64,000 nucleotides of DNA, taken from Chthoniobacter sp. (GTDB lineage Bacteria > Verrucomicrobiota > Verrucomicrobiia > Chthoniobacterales > Chthoniobacteraceae). Shown here piece by piece: positions 30,047 through 37,651 of this stretch; within the stretch, counting starts at the first letter, position 1; the number at the start of each line of letters is the position of its first letter. The position numbers were made by a program, and so were the translations under genes. The DNA is taken from contig JAYWEP010000105.1 of assembly GCA_043779205.1 (NCBI GenBank), positions 7,231-71,230 on the forward strand, given 5' to 3'. The notes under the pieces are model-generated. The model worked only from the letters and a program-made list of their open reading frames with translations. It made no database searches and was not told the origin of the DNA.

Positions 30047-30201
30047 GCGCCCTATAAATCCGGTTCTGCGTCCCCTCGCAAGATTCTTGGTCAGGGGATT
30101 TGGGGAACTGAGTCAGGAGTTGCAGCTTTAGTCCCGGCGCATGCTGCGCCGGCGGTAGGCGGTGGGTGGCGCAGGATGCGCCGCCGCTCCAACACCCACT
30201 C

Positions 30202-30709
30202 GGCGGGACGCCGACTAACTTCAAAGGAGCGGGAGGAGTGGTTGGGCCGCGCCGGGTCCGGTTCGGTTGGTTCCTGGTTAGTGGGGCGGCTGGCGCGACG
30301 GCTGCGCGCTACAGCATACAACGCGCGGTAAAGTAAAGTGCGCCGCCGCGGCCGGGGGGCGCGGCGGGGTCCCCCCTGGGGTGCCGCGGCGGTTGGTCCT
30401 CGGGGCGGCGCACTTTGCTTTACCGCTGTTGTATGCTGAGCGAGCACGGCTTTGGCCCGGCGGAATGATGGGCGGGCCAAAGCCGCGCGCAGCGGTTCGC
30501 GCAAGCAGCCGGCGTGACAGCCGCGCGGTTGGCGGAGCGGGCGGGGGTTGGGGTCCGGGCGCGGCCAGCAGGCAGCGTGACGCGCGAGGGCGCTGTTGGG
30601 CGAAGGCGGGCAGCGCGCTCGCGCGGCGCGATGCCTGCACGGCGGGCGGGCCGCTAACACTTGCGCGGCGGGACGCCGCCTAACTTAACGGGAGCGCGGT
30701 TAGTTAGAC
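30202..30709. other. Cluster of attC-like / imperfect palindromic elements, probably non-coding
   Basis: 127-bp imperfect hairpin at 30312-30438 (CAGCATACAAC...GTTGTATGCTG). GCCTAAC...GTTAGAC at 30678-30709 contains the stop codon of the adjacent gene. 30-nt direct repeat 30202-30231 / 30667-30696 (26/30 identical). Confidence 0.5.
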
Positions 30710-31843
30710 GCGGCGCTTCAAGACTAACCATCCAATCACGGCAAGAGTGGCGATTCCCACTAACCAAGGCCACACCGGCGACCCGCGCTCAACGACCGGC
30801 GCGGGACTTTCAGCGAATGTCGGATCTGGTGATGTAGGCGCGGGCGTTGCAGTTGCAACGGGCGTTATCGGCGCTGGTGTTGCTGCGGCTGGCGTCTCTG
30901 CGGGCTGTGGCTTTTCCGGCGGCTGCGACGTCGCTACCAATCGTCCTGAACCGTTTATTGCCGTCGGGATGAGTAAAGGTCTTTTTCCCTCGACCTGTGC
31001 AATTGCCGACTGGAACTGGACCGAGTAAATGCGCGCCTGCTCTGGCGGAAGTGTTGCCTCGATCTCTTGGAGTCGAGCTTTGAGTAGCGGCATGACAGAC
31101 GCAGCGGCAGGCCCGAGGGAGTTGATGGCTTCGATTGCCTTACGGTAATTGCTCAGCGCTTCATTTTCTCCGAAGACCCCGGTGCTTCCCGTAGTGCCAT
31201 CGGCGTTGAACGGAACACTAAGTACCTCCCGTAAAACGGGCACAACCTCCGGGATCAGCATTGCACTGGCTTTCATCGCCCACCGAATTCGGTTTTCGCG
31301 ATCCGGCTCTGCTAACACCTTTCGGCCCAAGTCACTCTTCTCGGTTGCGGTTAGTAGGCGATGCTGGAATAGGAGATCGTAGGCATAGCCAGCATCGTTT
31401 GTCAGATCAGCCAGGTGGGTTCGCAGTTCGGTCGCGAAAGACTCATCCGGCTTTGTATGATCGAGCAGGCTTCGGCATTGGTGAGCTAGTTCGCTCAAAG
31501 CTCGGTCACGACTAAAGGCGACTTTCAACAGATCTCTATTGTAAGGTGCGATCACCGCGGCGAACCGATCAATCAGTGCTCGGCGCTGCGGACTTGGATT
31601 TGCACCTTCACCGGATTCCATTTTATACACGCCATTTATCAGCTCGGATGTGGTGGCTTGCATGGCACGCGCCGTGTCCTTTGGCGAAGCGATTACATCG
31701 GTCTGTCCTGAGTTATAGGCTCTGATAATGTCGAGGTGGCGTTTAACCGATTCATCAATCGTTTCGCCGAAAGCCATGTGATTCATCAAGGCTATGCCCA
31801 AAAGAAGGAGTCCGCGGAATAACGATTTGAAGAACGTCGCCAT
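30704..31843 (-). CDS. Exported helical protein with Pro/Ala/Thr linker and C-terminal TM anchor (candidate immunity protein)
   Basis: Signal peptide MATFFKSLFRGLLLLGIAL; helical core; PAATPAPITP linker; WPWLVGIATLAVIGWLVLKRRV*. Starts 7 nt after the upstream stop; visibly lower GC. Confidence 0.75.
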   Translation of the reverse strand: MATFFKSLFRGLLLLGIALMNHMAFGETIDESVKRHLDIIRAYNSGQTDVIASPKDTARAMQATTSELINGVYKMESGEGANPSPQRRALIDRFAAVIAPYNRDLLKVAFSRDRALSELAHQCRSLLDHTKPDESFATELRTHLADLTNDAGYAYDLLFQHRLLTATEKSDLGRKVLAEPDRENRIRWAMKASAMLIPEVVPVLREVLSVPFNADGTTGSTGVFGENEALSNYRKAIEAINSLGPAAASVMPLLKARLQEIEATLPPEQARIYSVQFQSAIAQVEGKRPLLIPTAINGSGRLVATSQPPEKPQPAETPAAATPAPITPVATATPAPTSPDPTFAESPAPVVERGSPVWPWLVGIATLAVIGWLVLKRRV

Positions 31844-31850
31844 ACTAAAG

Positions 31851-34800
31851 CTAGTCGGTAATCTGATCCGTTCTTCCAACGTCAGGCCCATTCCCGTCGC
31901 CCAAACTTATTGGTCCCGGATAGTCATTTGCCCTTGCTGGCACTCGGTGAATGTCTTTGTAGGTTCCGTTTGATTGGATGACGATAATTTCGTAAGAAGG
32001 ATACCGGTCATGCTTGCCATCGAAGCCGATTGTCGGGCGGAGAGGATCATCGACAGCGACGCCAAACCATATTTTCCAATGAATGTCCGCAACGAAGGCG
32101 GTGTTGCCGGCTGCTCCCATTGCTCCGTCTTCGCCGCGAGCCTCCATTTCAAGTTCCGCTTCATGGCTGCGGCTTCTCTTTACTCGGTAATACGCCTCCA
32201 TCGTTAAGGGCGGTTTGCCGAACGAAGTGCGGTTTCCCGCTAGATTGCCGTAGCCGTATCGCTGCGACATTTCCGCCGGATTAACTGAAGCGGCTTTGTT
32301 GAAGTGCTCGGAAAGCGGAGCAGTCCATGCGTGGCGCTCGCTTACGATGTCAGGCGTGGCATGGAGTTCTTCGTAGGGTGTTACGACGATGGTCTGGCAT
32401 ACCCTGAATGGCGCATCGTTAAACCGGTCGGTTTCGCTCGAATAGGTATTTCTAAAACCGCGATTATCTCCCTTAGCGATCCAGCCCCCCAGATTGAAAG
32501 GACTTTCAGGTTCGGTCCAGTTGTAAGGGATGAAAGCTTTCACCTGAACCAAAAATTCGGACTGGACCACAGTGCATTTGAGCGAGTCGCCATCATACCA
32601 TTGACCGCCCAAGCCAACCTGCATCTTGATTTCCTCTCCTCCGCGAGACTGACTTTTCTTCAATCCCTGGAAGTAGAGCATCTTTTCTTGGGTAGCATCG
32701 AACTCGGTCTGCTCGCTCGTTACTTCCTGCGTCCGCGCTTCATCGCTGTAAATCTTGTAACGATCTCCAGGCGTGAACTTCAGTCGGGTTTTCCAACCGG
32801 CCTGTGCGCCACCGACCGCCCGGATGACCAGCTTCGTGACAGGGGTAACGTCCAGCCCATCGACCAAGCGGCGAACGGATACGTAGCCGCCATCGCCGAC
32901 ATCCTCCTTGGCGTCGGAAAGCTCGCCGCTCGCCGGATGGATCACGTCTAAGTCCACCGGCAGGAGGAGTAATGCGTGCGGGTTGGGATCCGTCTGAGCC
33001 TGCAGTCTGCCGATAGCGGCGAAGCATCGGGAGGCGTTGAACTGCTTGAGACTGAAATCACCGGCTGGCAGGTCGAGGATGGCGATGCTCTGGGGGCCGG
33101 TGGCTGGGCGCTGCCAGAGGAGTGTTTTGGGCAGCCATGTCACTGGAGACGGCGGGCCAATGGTGACGGGCGGTGGGGTTTGAAACACCTCGGCATCGAC
33201 GACGAGGTCGCCATTTCCATTGACCCATCCCGAGGAAGTTCCGGGAAAGCGGATCCCCTTTGCGTAAGCCTCCGGCAAGAGTGTCTTGAGGTGGCGGATA
33301 CTGATGCCGTCCCATAGCGCCACGAGATCAAGAGGATCCTTTGCGCTGGGATCCAATGGATTGAGCCGATAGCTGCCGAGCACCTTTCCGCCATCGCCAA
33401 CGGCCACAGGAAACAAACTGCCGAGTTGAGTCATGCTTGTGCCGCTCACAACCGCGTAGGCCCACGTCGTTGACAGACCTCCTTCATCCGCCGCAGTCTG
33501 ACCAGCGGAGTCTCCCGCAGAGCTGAATATCCATGGAGTATAGTAAGAATTCGATCCCGTTCCCCACCATGTTTGTGGGGCTCCAGTACCGGTAAACCAT
33601 CCATTCAATGTTTCACCATGTCCGGAAATGAGTGACGAATTGCCAAAATTGATGTAGCCCGTGAAATAGGCCTCGAACCAAAATCCGGACGGACCAGAGC
33701 CGATTTCACTAGGGTTCACACTGTCGTCTATAAAATACATCGACCATGTGGCGGCGTGTTCGTTGTATGGATGATTGAAATCGCCAGTGTTATACTGAGT
33801 CGTGCCGGCGATGGTTCCGCTGGCGTTGAGCGATTCCATAAATCTGTGGGCGTTCACTACGGCAGGATTACCTCCGTCGCCTAGAACCGTTTTTGGCAGA
33901 TCAATGCCGAAATCGGATGTCGGGCCTGGAGTGCCATTCGCCCAGACCACCGAATGATGGTTGGTGGTGTCGGAATAGGCAAAGGCAAGATGGTTGTTGT
34001 CGTCCAGTGCCACGAGGGAAATGGGCGCTTGAATAGGCGCTTGTGTCGTCGAACTGACATCCACTGCTGCATACATGATATGCGGCAAGTCATCCAGCGG
34101 CGGAGCGTCTTTTTTCGGACCGTTGGGGTTCGCGGGATCAACGGGTACAAGCGGGGCGTTCGGGTTCGAGTTGTTATTATACCGCTCGAGATTAGTTTGT
34201 TCGCCGCCATTAGACATATCCTGGGCATCGTTCGGGTTGAGCCGGTCAAGACCGTATAGGTTCTCCCACCAATCCGGAATCCCGTCGCCATCGCTATCCA
34301 GCCAGGCTGCGACATTCAGAGCCACGAGATTGGAGGATGCGGAGTGGCGCAGATCGGAGTCGGCACCGTAGATGTAGCGGATCCGGTAGGTGTGGATTTT
34401 GCCGAGGACGGGGTTTGGGTCAGAAAAATGCAGCACTTCGCTGGCATCAGCGGTATTCGCAGGGACGATGTCGATGGTCTGCCAGGCGGTTGCGCCGCTG
34501 AGCAGGCGCTCGATTTCAAATCCGCCATCGAGCGAGGCCAGCCCGAGTGGCCATTGCAGGTCGATCATTCCCGTTTGCTGATTGACCGCGCCGGTCAGGC
34601 CCGCCGGGGTGGGGAGCGCAAACCAGGTGATGAGGTCGGTCGTGTTATAGGGCGATTCCTCGCCGGTTTCCTCGTCGTACACCCAGTAATCCACGCCGTC
34701 GCGAACGGACGTGTCCACCAGAAACGAATAGGAGGAACTGGTCCAGACCGTGGCATCGGGAGCGAGTGAGGCCCAGGCGGTGGTGCTCCGCGCGTTGACG

Positions 34801-36680
34801 GGAAAGTCCGATCCATCGCGCTGGCGGAGGCGGAGGCGGGGGGCGGTGTCGAAGGCCCAGCGGGAAAGCGAAATGTTCAAGGCCAGCGGCTTGACTTTCG
34901 CCTGATAGCCGAAGTCGCGGACGTAGTTGGTCGTCGTGCCGGCATTCAAGGGCAGGCTCCAGTCCTGCCCGGCGACGGGGTTGGTCAGCGACCAATCGCC
35001 CAGCGGGCCGGTGTAGGGCAGGGTCAGCGTCCAGGTTTTCTCCACCGCCGCCCAAACCATGCCGGGATGCCACGCGTCGTCAAAGCTGAGGGTGGTCGGC
35101 GCGGAAGGGGCCATCTGGTAAGGCGTGCCATTCGGTGCTGTCAGGGTCAGTCCGGCGGCGGGTTCCGGCCCGGTTACTTTGAGGGTAAAGGTGAACTGCC
35201 CCGGCGTCCCCACGGGAGGTGTCCCGGCCGTTCCGCCGATGGGTGTCCAGCCATCGAGCACCCAGACCCGGCCTTGGGAAAACATCTCGGTTCCACCCGC
35301 GGTCTGCGCCATGAGGTTGAAAGGTTCCGCGGGATTCACCTGCGCGGTGACGGTGAAGTATCTGAGGAAATTCGGCGTGTGATCGGGGGCGTAGTCTTCG
35401 TAGCTCAGCACAGGGCGGACTGCCGCACTGCCCGGCGAGGTCGCGGAGAAAGAGCTGGGCTGCGCGACGGTGAAGGTCTGCGCGGCCCGTGTGCTGGCGA
35501 TGCCAAAGGTCATGGGCACCCGGCTGACCGCGGCGGGCGGCAGGGCGAGCGACCAGACCTTGGGCGTGGTGGAATTCGCAAGCGCCGAGGTCAGGGTAAA
35601 GGTGGGCGCGGTGGAGCCGTCGATGTTTCGCGTCAGCCAGAAACTGGCTCCGACGGCGATGGTTCCTGTGACCTTGGCCGCTCCGGCGGGAATGGTTTTC
35701 TGGCTGGCATTGACCGTGGCCGTGGAAAACGCGGCCCCCACCGCCGTCGGCCACACCGACATGACCGCCGCCACCTGCCCTGGAATCTGGTAGTGCAGCA
35801 CATACAGGTTATTCATCTCCGCGGCGGGCAGGTAAAAGGTGACGCTGGCGAGGGGATAGACCGCGTAGTCGTGGACCCAGGATGCGCCGCTGACATTGGT
35901 CTGGTTGAGCGGGGCTTTGGTGCCGTCGGAGCGGTCGGCGATGCTGAAATCGCCCGCGCCCAGCGGAGCCGAGCCGGTGAACCAGTGCAGCGGCACCTGC
36001 GTCCCGGTCGAGCCATTGCTATAGGTGCCAAAGGTGGAGTAACCCGAGGTGACCGGGCTCCAGCCGCCCGCCGGGCTCCCCGCGACCAGGGCGTGACCGA
36101 GGCGGGCCTCGGGGATGATGAAAGAGCGGGTGGGGATGCTGCCGAGCTGACGCCACGCCCCATTGCGGAGATCTTCACCCGGTCCCGGAGTGCCGGGGTG
36201 GTAGAATTCCTCATTGGCCGTCAGATCCACCAGCCACCAGTCGAAACACGCAAACGGCACTGCCGTGTACGCAGTATAAGTGTAAGTATAAGTGGTTCCT
36301 GGGTAGGTATAAACAACGGGCGTATAGACGTAAGTTGACTGTGTGTAGGCCGTCACCAGCACCGATCTCATCGTCGTATCGCCCACCACATTCGAGGCGG
36401 TCACGAAACCCATCGTCTGGGCAGATCCGGCAGTGATGGGATCCGCCGCCCGGACGCGCCATTTGAAGGAAAAATTATGCCCGGCCCGCTCCAGCGGCAC
36501 CTCAAAGCCAGCCAACCCGGCCGGCGCGCGCATCGTCGCGGGCGGGCCGCTCGGGTAATACACCGGGTACGAGTAACTGCTGTACTGACCGTGCATCCGC
36601 AGCGGAAAGAGGGCGGCGAGGAAAAGGCCGGCGGCGAGAAGCGGGAAGAAGCAGCGGTGGAGGGAGGTGGTCGTGTTCAT
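31851..36680 (-). CDS. 1609-aa secreted mosaic protein: repeats, FN3, DSDGDG Ca-binding motif, propeller-like repeats, DUF3238-like C-terminus (candidate polymorphic toxin)
   Basis: Signal peptide from MNTTTS; FN3-like LPTPAGL..IDLQW..FEIER..HTYRIRY; LDSDGDGIPDWWENLYGL; HALLLLPVD junction; tip VKAFIPYNW..KGDNRGF..HDRYPSYEI. Confidence 0.75.
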   Translation of the reverse strand: MNTTTSLHRCFFPLLAAGLFLAALFPLRMHGQYSSYSYPVYYPSGPPATMRAPAGLAGFEVPLERAGHNFSFKWRVRAADPITAGSAQTMGFVTASNVVGDTTMRSVLVTAYTQSTYVYTPVVYTYPGTTYTYTYTAYTAVPFACFDWWLVDLTANEEFYHPGTPGPGEDLRNGAWRQLGSIPTRSFIIPEARLGHALVAGSPAGGWSPVTSGYSTFGTYSNGSTGTQVPLHWFTGSAPLGAGDFSIADRSDGTKAPLNQTNVSGASWVHDYAVYPLASVTFYLPAAEMNNLYVLHYQIPGQVAAVMSVWPTAVGAAFSTATVNASQKTIPAGAAKVTGTIAVGASFWLTRNIDGSTAPTFTLTSALANSTTPKVWSLALPPAAVSRVPMTFGIASTRAAQTFTVAQPSSFSATSPGSAAVRPVLSYEDYAPDHTPNFLRYFTVTAQVNPAEPFNLMAQTAGGTEMFSQGRVWVLDGWTPIGGTAGTPPVGTPGQFTFTLKVTGPEPAAGLTLTAPNGTPYQMAPSAPTTLSFDDAWHPGMVWAAVEKTWTLTLPYTGPLGDWSLTNPVAGQDWSLPLNAGTTTNYVRDFGYQAKVKPLALNISLSRWAFDTAPRLRLRQRDGSDFPVNARSTTAWASLAPDATVWTSSSYSFLVDTSVRDGVDYWVYDEETGEESPYNTTDLITWFALPTPAGLTGAVNQQTGMIDLQWPLGLASLDGGFEIERLLSGATAWQTIDIVPANTADASEVLHFSDPNPVLGKIHTYRIRYIYGADSDLRHSASSNLVALNVAAWLDSDGDGIPDWWENLYGLDRLNPNDAQDMSNGGEQTNLERYNNNSNPNAPLVPVDPANPNGPKKDAPPLDDLPHIMYAAVDVSSTTQAPIQAPISLVALDDNNHLAFAYSDTTNHHSVVWANGTPGPTSDFGIDLPKTVLGDGGNPAVVNAHRFMESLNASGTIAGTTQYNTGDFNHPYNEHAATWSMYFIDDSVNPSEIGSGPSGFWFEAYFTGYINFGNSSLISGHGETLNGWFTGTGAPQTWWGTGSNSYYTPWIFSSAGDSAGQTAADEGGLSTTWAYAVVSGTSMTQLGSLFPVAVGDGGKVLGSYRLNPLDPSAKDPLDLVALWDGISIRHLKTLLPEAYAKGIRFPGTSSGWVNGNGDLVVDAEVFQTPPPVTIGPPSPVTWLPKTLLWQRPATGPQSIAILDLPAGDFSLKQFNASRCFAAIGRLQAQTDPNPHALLLLPVDLDVIHPASGELSDAKEDVGDGGYVSVRRLVDGLDVTPVTKLVIRAVGGAQAGWKTRLKFTPGDRYKIYSDEARTQEVTSEQTEFDATQEKMLYFQGLKKSQSRGGEEIKMQVGLGGQWYDGDSLKCTVVQSEFLVQVKAFIPYNWTEPESPFNLGGWIAKGDNRGFRNTYSSETDRFNDAPFRVCQTIVVTPYEELHATPDIVSERHAWTAPLSEHFNKAASVNPAEMSQRYGYGNLAGNRTSFGKPPLTMEAYYRVKRSRSHEAELEMEARGEDGAMGAAGNTAFVADIHWKIWFGVAVDDPLRPTIGFDGKHDRYPSYEIIVIQSNGTYKDIHRVPARANDYPGPISLGDGNGPDVGRTDQITD

Positions 36681-36933
36681 GGCTGGGGATGGGACGGGTT
36701 CATGGGTGCTGGCGGGAAAAGGCGGGAACAAGCCGGGGCGAAGGACAAAGCGGATGAAAAGACGCTCGCCGCCCGAAAGCGACAAAGGCGCGAGCGTCGC
36801 GAGGGGGCGGAGGGAAACCGGCTGGGACTCGATGTATGGGAGCACATGAGGACTAAACTAAACCACCAACTTTGCACGGGAGACGATTCACCGTATGACC
36901 GGCAATCTGTCAAATCTTTTTTTGCCCCTCGTG

Positions 36934-37090
36934 CCCCTCGTTCCCAAGCTCCTGCTTGGGAATGCCAGTGTCCTGGAAGCTCCGCTTCCCGGTGCGTGGC
37001 ATGGAGTGACGCGTGTGCGCTCTTGCGGCGCGGCCGAAGCAGAGCTTCGCAGACAAGGGCGTGCCCAAGCTGGAGCTTGGGCACGAGGGG
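36934..37090. repeat. About 155-bp composite REP/BIME-like element, copy 1
   Basis: CTCGTTCCCAAGCTCCTGCTTGGGAA..GAAGCTCCGCTTC..GAAGCAGAGCTTCG..CCCAAGCTGGAGCTTGGGCACGAG; homologous to 63639-63792. Confidence 0.9.
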
Positions 37091-37137
37091 CCATTGCCTG
37101 GGCACGAGGAGGGAAATACAACCCGCATCGCCGCGGA

Positions 37138-37284
37138 GCGGGCTGGTTTTTTTACGATGCGGGTCGGCTTTGATCCGCGGCAGACTCGCTTTGGGGAAAA
37201 GCGGGTCTGCTTTTTTGCAAAGCAGACCGGCCTTTTTGCGGTGCGGGTTTGCATGCCAGGCAAGCGGGTTTGCTTTGGAGCAAA
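37138..37284. repeat. Seven degenerate 21-bp tandem repeats
   Basis: Units start at an exact 21-nt period (37138, 37159, 37180, 37201, 37222, 37243, 37264); consensus approximately GC(G/A)G(G/A)(T/C)NNGCTTT. Confidence 0.85.
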
Positions 37285-37410
37285 ACAACTCCCCGTCCGA
37301 TCAATGCGGACTGGCTGTTCCATGAGCGCAATTCGCCGGCTTTTTCCGCTGGAAGTAACTGCCGGCACATCGGCGGCAATGATGCTGGCATGGTTTTGGC
37401 TAAGTGAATT

Positions 37411-37542
37411 TCAAACTCGACGGCCACGCGCGTGGTCATCGGCGGGCTCACGCCGGGCGAGACGCTCTGGGCGCGCGCCTGCGCGAACGGCTCCGCCGGA
37501 GCCAGCGAATGGAGCGCGTCGGCGACGGCGATGGTCACCTAA
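37411..37542 (+). pseudogene. C-terminal fragment of a fibronectin type III domain gene
   Basis: SNSTATRVVIGGLTPGETLWARACANGSAGASEWSASATAMVT* matches the FN3 GLxPGxxYxxRVxAxxxxGxSxWS pattern. In-frame TGA just upstream and no start codon. Confidence 0.65.
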
Positions 37543-37570
37543 GCCCGGAAAGCAAAAGCTGCCAAAACTC

Positions 37571-37600
37571 AAGGCGCGTCGGAGAAATCCGACGCGCCTT
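37571..37600. terminator. Stem-loop downstream of ispF (probable terminator)
   Basis: AAGGCGCGTCGGA-GAAA-TCCGACGCGCCTT, a perfect 13-bp stem. A second hairpin lies at 37615-37649. Confidence 0.65.
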
Positions 37601-37651
37601 TCTCGCGCCTCAGAGGGCGTCTAAATAAAGCGCGGGCTATTAGACGCCCGC

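Follow-up and report, generated by a model that had tools for sequence, protein, structure and literature searches.

We analysed a 64,000-nucleotide stretch of a Chthoniobacter sp. genome (Verrucomicrobiota; GenBank assembly GCA_043779205.1, contig JAYWEP010000105.1, positions 7,231 to 71,230), hereafter the window, and focus here on two adjacent genes that an earlier note, made from the sequence alone, had proposed to be a polymorphic toxin and its immunity gene. The larger gene (31854-36680, minus strand; TAG stop at 31851-31853) encodes a protein of 1609 amino acids, P0001, and the smaller (30707-31843, minus strand) a partner of 379 amino acids, P0002, which starts 7 nt after the stop of the large gene, as the note had it. 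When both proteins and five sub-pieces were scanned against Pfam and NCBIfam, neither reached any family, and the sole family signal was a sub-threshold TSP3_bac match in P0001. The same scans found no RHS, CdiA, type VI secretion system (T6SS) or type VII secretion system (T7SS) domains in P0001, among them RHS/YD repeats and haemagglutinin, PAAR/VgrG and LXG/WXG domains, and the host genome holds four secretin genes and no TssC, the T6SS sheath gene, in agreement with the stated lack of such hallmarks.

Base composition changes within the large gene. The GC content at third codon positions (GC3) of P0001 is ~0.82 for residues 1-700, drops to 0.52-0.60 at about residue 800, recovers in part to ~0.7 at residues 1100-1250 and is ~0.55-0.6 over the final 300 residues. 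For the partner gene, GC content is 0.49-0.59, compared with ~0.65 in the adjoining housekeeping genes. The drop from about 34.3 kb to the end of the partner gene, which the earlier note had described, is therefore real in both the GC3 and GC profiles.

Comparison with sister genomes places both genes on an inserted island (30047-37651) between the start of an M16-type peptidase gene (30046) and the end of ispF (37652). In three genomes of the same genus (G176, G161 and G007) the peptidase gene and ispF lie ~13-100 nt apart, and here they are separated by 7.6 kb. At the same site, G005 carries a 1.6-kb insert with an open reading frame (ORF) of 300 amino acids, and G009 carries an unrelated 9.8-kb insert that includes a second copy of part of the peptidase gene (residues 18-70). 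The M16 peptidase-ispF junction is an insertion hotspot in the genus.

P0001 begins with a signal peptide (residues 1-31, MNTTTSLHRCFFPLLAAGLFLAALFPLRMHG before Q; 36588-36680, minus strand), read from the sequence and found as the same leader in its homologues P0024 and P0025, which bears out the Sec-type signal proposed for it. Behind the leader lies a conserved carrier region (residues 32-790; 34311-36587, minus strand) with the native composition, a GC3 of ~0.8. Its last part, at about residues 690-790, is FN3-like; Pfam fn3 matches only the homologues at the equivalent position, so the FN3 domain of the note is supported through these relatives. As a query, residues 30-790 returned only two relatives, P0024 (1927 amino acids; 68% identity over residues 45-821 of P0001) and P0025 (1682 amino acids; 58% identity over residues 29-849). 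In both proteins the similarity stops at DSDGDGxPDWWE, and the remaining 800-1100 residues show no relationship to P0001. The end of P0024 is a DUF900-type alpha/beta-hydrolase domain (21.2 bits, just above the cut-off), whereas P0025 has Big_5 domains and a terminal HEIGH motif of the HExxH type. Further relatives in the genus include a copy in G012 with 77% identity that is cut by a contig end, a homologue in G005 (locus L041) that ends in a tip with a Cys/His motif, a relative with Big_5 in G017, and a distant homologue of 2213 amino acids in G023 that has three copies of a ~540-residue carrier core and seven TSP3 repeats. This core recurs two to three times within single proteins of the relatives. 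A self-comparison of P0001 gave no internal repeat at E<=1, and we therefore could not uphold the 'repeated N-terminal modules' of the earlier note.

The region upstream of the gene travels with the carrier. About 440 nt of 5' leader or promoter DNA (36780-37216, minus strand) share 75-81% DNA identity with the upstream regions of carrier homologues in loci L007 and L043, which lie in other contexts; the upstream regions of P0024 and of the G012 copy show this conservation. Two side observations concern the carrier family. A decayed carrier fragment with an internal TAG and 51% identity to residues 560-646 lies on another contig of the same genome (C115:927-1190; L002/L058) and is probably the relic of another copy. 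In G023 (L038; contig C15, 2666-12851), the gene for the 2213-residue carrier protein is overlapped over ~85 nt, in another frame, by an ORF with RHS repeats; a frameshift or fusion at this point would link the carrier family to RHS toxins.

Conservation of the carrier ends within a TSP3-like junction (residues 791-846; 34143-34310, minus strand), which we read as the 5' recombination breakpoint from the end of homology and the drop in GC3. It contains the DSDGDGIPDWWE motif of the earlier note at residues 795-806 (34263-34298). The TSP3 model (PF18884) scores 13.1 bits here at residues 795-810, under Pfam's 25-bit cut-off, and the equivalent motif in homologues passes it with 57, 46 and 164 bits. 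P0024, P0025, L041 and L040 align with P0001 only up to residues 806-849, and by DNA as well as translated comparison all carrier homologues lose similarity at 34287-34317. The fall of GC3 from ~0.8 to ~0.55 coincides with this point, so the GC3 analysis suggested in the note puts the compositional break at the homology breakpoint. On its own, the motif at residues 790-846 is common to many large proteins of the genus. The middle region that follows (residues 860-1234; 32979-34103, minus strand) has a low GC3 and no detectable relatives, with no match in Pfam or among the tip-bearing proteins described below; together with the absence of internal repeats in P0001, this gave us nothing to sustain the 'propeller-like repeats' of the note.

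A break of this kind, and the pairing of the two genes, could also arise by chance or as an assembly artefact such as a chimeric contig. The host assembly is a fragmented draft of 335 contigs, and contig C530 of G012 ends in an inverted duplication at the same junction. Still, an uninterrupted reading frame of 1609 codons spans the break, the exact P0001 protein is on record on five contigs (the longest of 134 kb), and the same architecture recurs in independent assemblies, so we regard an artefact as very improbable.

The C-terminal tip of P0001 starts at an LLLLPVD junction (residues 1237-1243; 32952-32972, minus strand) and consists of a beta-sandwich, Ig-like part (residues 1244-1380; 32541-32951, minus strand) and a divergent DUF3238 domain (residues 1381-1609; 31854-32540, minus strand). 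An exhaustive search with the last 320 residues found at least 140 clusters at the 50% identity level, 116 of them at E<=1e-10. The match always lies at the extreme C-terminus, in proteins of ~350-3058 residues with unrelated N-termini. When the whole of P0001 is compared with these tip relatives, similarity begins at residues 1230-1242, at LLLLPVD; the ALLLLPVD junction picked out in the earlier note is thus the exact onset of similarity to all of them. Within the order, the tip was found in only 3 of 151 sampled genomes.

The assignment to DUF3238 (PF11579; gathering score 21.1 bits) rests on profile, structural and homologue evidence. The Pfam model itself has no match in P0001, in its last 230 residues or in a six-frame search of the whole genome. 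Tip relatives with ~40% identity do pass the gathering score (P0178 with 37.5 bits, P0180 with 26.8 bits and the tip in L055 with 23.9 bits), and the profile of the tip family (A1) finds the PDB entry 3c5p at E 1.3e-8, with the motifs FIPxxWTE, GDxRxF and G.HD.(Y/F)P.(Y/F)E aligned between the two; R..V.Q is a further motif in common. An AlphaFold2 model of residues 1232-1609 is nearly all strand (predicted local distance difference test, pLDDT, 88; predicted template modelling score 0.85), with the beta-sandwich part composed entirely of strands at a pLDDT of ~90. Its best Foldseek match is again 3c5p (E 4.3e-9, TM-score 0.75 on the target), its front half resembles the Ig-like N-terminal domains of PAD enzymes, and against viral structures Foldseek gave nothing significant. 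Four polar positions, D1405, R1426, S1457 and E1564, are conserved across 81 diverse tips. The entry 3c5p is BAS0735, a small protein of Bacillus anthracis Sterne and the only solved member of DUF3238, with a crystal structure available since 2008; DUF3238 is mentioned by no paper in the library that we searched, and looking there for BAS0735, 3C5P and PF11579 turned up nothing of relevance. Calling the C-terminus, with its FIP..GDNRGF..YPSYEI pattern, 'DUF3238-like' was right at the superfamily level.

The partner P0002 has a signal peptide (residues 1-26; 31766-31843, minus strand) that was read from the sequence and aligned in 21 family members, an alpha-solenoid core (residues 27-300; 30944-31765, minus strand) and a tail (residues 301-379; 30707-30943, minus strand) made up of a Pro/Ala/Thr linker, a WPW motif, a transmembrane (TM) helix and KRRV. 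Its AlphaFold2 model (pLDDT 83) consists of a signal helix (residues 2-25), a twelve-helix alpha-solenoid modelled mostly at pLDDT >90, a disordered linker at residues 306-358 (pLDDT <50) and a terminal helix at residues 359-378. Sequence and model thus agree with the signal peptide, helical core, linker and TM+KRR tail listed in the earlier note. The note also called the partner surface-anchored, and here the membrane anchor stands, as the C-terminal helix, while its placement is better read as the inner membrane with a periplasmic helical domain. This type I topology, in which the solenoid would lie in the periplasm, is suggested by the signal peptide taken together with a lone C-terminal helix and the KRRV tail. 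Foldseek matches of P0002 in the PDB are weak and of a generic alpha-solenoid, HEAT/ARM-type kind (designed alphaRep and importin-type repeats, E 0.03-0.1), there is no Pfam HEAT match, and the partner-family profile has no match among PDB sequences; two proteins that share the tail, P0018 and P0013, have weak HEAT_2 matches. Close relatives of P0002 (48-84% identity) were found only in metagenomes, and a close homologue, as part of the same pair, lies in another context in L060.

The tail of the partner is constant where the core is not. Over its last ~65 residues, P0002 shares 65-81% identity with the tails of P0011, P0013-P0016, P0018 and P0019, and a range of 65-85% applies to the tail as a whole (residues 301-379). 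The cores of these proteins cannot be aligned with that of P0002 (E>0.1); only P0013 is a remote relative there. In DNA comparisons, the last 100-200 nt of the partner-type genes are 72-81% identical. In L041 of the same genus (contig C425 of G005), with a different tip and a different partner core, 86% DNA identity extends ~200 nt past the stop codon, and this defines a conserved 3' non-coding tail at 30500-30703 (minus strand), the only DNA below the partner that is shared with another tip-partner locus. We considered the tail (WPW, TM, KRR) as a general sorting signal of the PEP-CTERM or LPXTG kind, and rejected this because no NCBIfam model matches it and the host genome has a single gene with such a tail. 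We also rejected the idea that tail-sharing partners are in all cases alleles of one chromosomal site, as L041, L050 and L060 lie in other contexts. In L050 (5387-9816) the tail-bearing P0015 follows an unrelated secreted protein of 1128 amino acids after 228 nt; comparison shows this upstream protein to be neither a carrier nor a tip homologue. Nested inverted repeats occur in the non-coding DNA below the partner at 30312-30438, with arms of 26 nt (30325-30350 and 30401-30426) and 11 nt (30312-30322 and 30428-30438).

The earlier note had proposed collecting homologues and following their C-termini and downstream genes together, and in this comparison the carrier homologues keep neither the same C-terminus nor the same neighbour, an outcome that favours its reading. 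Conversely, the DUF3238-like tip keeps its own partner family. Scanning one genome per species, we found 17 tip-encoding loci, all in Verrucomicrobiota (Chthoniobacter, Haloferula, Luteolibacter, Akkermansiaceae and others), 16 of which have room for a gene downstream. In 15 of these 16 the next gene encodes a protein of 325-391 amino acids with a signal peptide, a C-terminal hydrophobic helix and a basic tail, and 13 of these partner genes overlap the stop codon of the tip gene by 4 nt (ATGA). Iterated searching placed all 15 downstream proteins in the P0002 family. For the nearest loci, partners are 24-32% and tips 55-60% identical, so that divergence is much faster in the partner.

Other tips have other neighbours, and tip and neighbour changed together in each case that we looked at. 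Downstream of P0024, with its hydrolase tip, is encoded a protein that is anchored at its N-terminus and has a proline-rich linker as well as a beta-rich domain. P0025, with its HExxH tip, is followed by a partner of 274 amino acids that also has a signal peptide, a helical core, a linker and a TM helix and cannot be aligned with P0002 by BLAST. Further down the P0025 locus (L005/L006) there is an orphan tip copy of 185 amino acids (46% identical to P0025 residues 1525-1678), then a second partner that is 67% identical to the first, and an IS200-type transposase gene follows the cassette; the orphan tip and second partner favour the reading of the tips as exchangeable. Contigs recovered through proteins that share only the tail of P0002 add further pairs. 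They comprise a tip of a second DUF3238 subfamily before a HEAT-type partner (L055), a Cys/His tip followed by P0016 and a DDE transposase (L053/L054), a His..Cys tip followed by P0014 or P0019 (L056/L052), and an 867-residue HExxH protein with a small helical neighbour of its own (L052). The motif LLPV(D/E), or a close variant, stands before each of these tips, including unrelated ones in L041, L052, L053 and L056, and so shows where the exchangeable end starts in one tip family after another. Sequence searches of Pfam and PDB gave no match for the Cys/His and His..Cys tips (L053, L056); they may be cysteine hydrolases, judging from motifs spotted by eye.

Several further observations touch these loci. 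Transposase genes (DDE_Tnp_1, Y1_Tnp) lie directly after tip-partner cassettes at L053:2108-3382, L054:1803-3146 and L005:15510-16502. A second system of the same design is present on contig C315 of the host genome itself (L059:3845-7355), where a 247-residue TSP3/FN3 gene, a 600-residue gene ending in HExxH and a 323-residue partner with a signal peptide, a helical core, a Pro-rich linker and a TM helix are joined by ATGA overlaps. Contig C285 (L057:63-3659, minus strand) encodes a secreted protein of 1198 amino acids with a TSP3 motif and a terminal HExxH tip that resembles the 867-residue gene of L052; the contig breaks off before the downstream neighbour.

Taken together, the comparison of loci supports the gene architecture of a polymorphic toxin/immunity system. 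It shows that the gene 7 nt after P0001 is inherited together with the tip, and that different putative C-terminal effector cassettes have been joined to one modular carrier. Zhang, de Souza, Anantharaman, Iyer & Aravind 2012 (PMC3482391) described Sec/type II secretion system (T2SS)-type polymorphic toxin systems and set out comparative criteria, four of which have a counterpart here: a constant leader and carrier with variable ends, ends shared among carriers, a cognate gene directly downstream, and orphan cassettes or mobile-element genes, the last only in related loci. Leaders of the Sec type alone are on record in the same study, as are immunity proteins of the HEAT type and, for toxins that act at the surface, immunity proteins that are secreted or have a TM segment. 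On both grounds we place the two genes as a new variant among polymorphic toxin systems, in which the carrier, both junction motifs, the use of DUF3238 as a tip and the tail-anchored alpha-solenoid partner with its constant tail are new. A target in the envelope is suggested by a partner that is predicted to be exported and to face the periplasm, and by sister tips of the hydrolase type. We therefore consider it probable, with a fair margin of doubt, that the two genes form a Sec-dependent toxin/immunity-type module on a 7.6-kb accessory island, with an envelope-acting tip that is blocked by the partner.

A number of points weigh against this interpretation. One tip locus (L012) has no partner, and the similarities of tips and partners covary (rho 0.84) in a way that shared descent could also produce. 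The orphan tip-partner cassettes are present in L005/L006 and absent from the window and the host genome, which has no second copy of the pair either, and the tail-bearing P0015 sits beside a gene that is not a tip. The tip is all-beta in the model and related to the uncharacterised 3c5p, and its role could be in binding and not in catalysis; no known step would take it across the outer membrane of a target cell. Finally, the comparison speaks for the gene architecture, whereas the toxicity, binding and secretion of the tip are predictions.

Some of the same evidence would suit a secreted exo-enzyme or adhesin used in feeding or attachment, with the partner acting as a periplasmic inhibitor or holdase until export. 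Periplasmic inhibitors of secreted proteases, such as AprI for AprA, provide a model for such an arrangement. The sister tips are ordinary hydrolase types (HExxH, alpha/beta-hydrolase, Cys/His), FN3, TSP3 and Ig-like modules are typical of surface and exo-proteins, and the single copy in this genome has no cassette array and no linked delivery apparatus. However, orphan tip-partner cassettes, and tips that are swapped as a unit with the adjacent gene, characterise conflict systems and not nutrient enzymes, the pair is inserted as an island and has a rare, patchy distribution, and the partner evolves much faster than the tip. We judge this explanation to be rather unlikely, although it is the strongest of the alternatives.

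The all-beta tip without a recognisable catalytic site, its occurrence on very different N-termini, and a partner whose protein-binding scaffold is joined by a long tether to a membrane anchor could instead suggest that DUF3238 is a docking domain. The tethered solenoid would then anchor the giant protein on the envelope in the manner of cohesin and dockerin, and the variable N-termini would do the work. Yet the same LLPV[D/E] junction and the same kind of partner go with tips that have catalytic motifs, an anchor in the inner membrane would keep the protein in the periplasm rather than on the surface, and neither partners specific to a tip family nor orphan cassettes are expected of an anchor. 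This makes a docking role improbable in our view.

If the two genes are indeed a toxin and its immunity protein, we envisage the following mechanism. The partner would be exported by its signal peptide and held by its C-terminal helix in the inner membrane, with KRRV in the cytoplasm and the alpha-solenoid hanging in the periplasm on a disordered tether of ~55 residues. The DUF3238 tip would act on an envelope or periplasmic target, and the partner would bind and block it both during export from the producer and upon delivery by a neighbouring cell. Because the genome has no T6SS, we propose that P0001 may pass the outer membrane through one of the secretin systems of the genome. Units of tip and partner core would be swapped by homologous recombination, with the TSP3 or LLPVD junction as the shared 5' sequence and the partner tail plus ~200 nt as the shared 3' sequence. 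The loci display the homology pattern for such cassette exchange, and the exchange mechanism is what we infer from it.

A bolder proposal, which we hold as possible and advance only tentatively, is that DUF3238 is a new envelope-targeting antibacterial effector fold and that these Verrucomicrobia use an undescribed 'double-flanked' cassette system. The unit of effector tip and immunity core would lie between the carrier junction (TSP3-like or LLPV[D/E]) on one side and the immunity tail with ~200 nt on the other. With constant flanks on both sides, one homologous exchange would replace weapon and antidote while keeping the parts for export and anchoring. If such two-sided exchange is true, both are replaced in one step, which is absent from the one-sided model of contact-dependent inhibition (CDI) and Rhs systems.

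Elsewhere on the island, a ~185-nt element at 37416-37601 has copies of 79-87% identity in L043, beside ispF in G009, and in L005, where it lies far from the toxin gene. A dispersed repeat and a conserved regulatory element are both possible readings.

Under the toxin/immunity interpretation, DUF3238 would gain its first concrete, testable role, and the catalogue of polymorphic toxins would be extended by a carrier, a pair of junction motifs and a family of tail-anchored alpha-solenoid partners. Verrucomicrobiota are abundant in soil and water, and little is known of their means of interbacterial competition. Since a cultured strain, Haloferula luteola YC6886, has tip-partner pairs (L011, L024), the idea is open to laboratory tests.

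Several known systems share parts of this design. CdiA-CT/CdiI pairs of the type V secretion system likewise have a short conserved motif at the start of the tip (VENN), exchange tip and immunity gene as a pair, and have orphan pairs after the main gene (here seen in a related locus). In contrast to CdiA, P0001 has no two-partner secretion (TPS) domain and no filamentous haemagglutinin repeats; there is no gene for a CdiB-type transporter, and unlike the cytoplasmic CdiI, the P0002 partner is predicted to be exported and tethered to the membrane. The Tae/Tai and Tle/Tli pairs of the T6SS resemble the loci described here in the hydrolase-like sister tips (DUF900, Cys/His, HExxH) and in a partner with an export signal that faces the periplasm. 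However, the host genome has no T6SS, the effector is fused to a giant Sec-exported carrier, and the partner, unlike a lipoprotein or a soluble periplasmic protein, has its anchor in a C-terminal helix. BAS0735/3c5p shares its fold and signature motifs with the tip of P0001. BAS0735 is a stand-alone protein of 197 residues, whereas the domain in the window has ~40 extra residues, sits behind a beta-sandwich at the end of giant secreted proteins, and stays below a match to the DUF3238 Pfam model.

Closest of all are the polymorphic toxins exported by the Sec route, of which MafB/MafI of Neisseria is the best-known example in diderms. Like Sec/T2SS-type systems in general, the loci described here have a signal-peptide leader, a conserved N-terminal region, a swapped C-terminus and an immunity-type gene directly downstream, as well as orphan cassettes of tip and immunity gene and transposases (here in related loci) and tips shared among carriers. 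Imm-HEAT (PMC3482391) is likewise a helical-repeat, protein-binding scaffold encoded directly after a toxin-type tip; P0002 differs from it in having no Pfam HEAT match and only weak Foldseek matches (E>=0.03), and in its signal peptide, disordered tether and TM tail. The carrier, the TSP3-like DSDGDGxPDWWE and LLPV[D/E] junctions, and DUF3238 are absent from the families in the text of PMC3482391. Further, the immunity-type gene here is a mosaic that joins a variable core to a constant linker, TM tail and 3' DNA.

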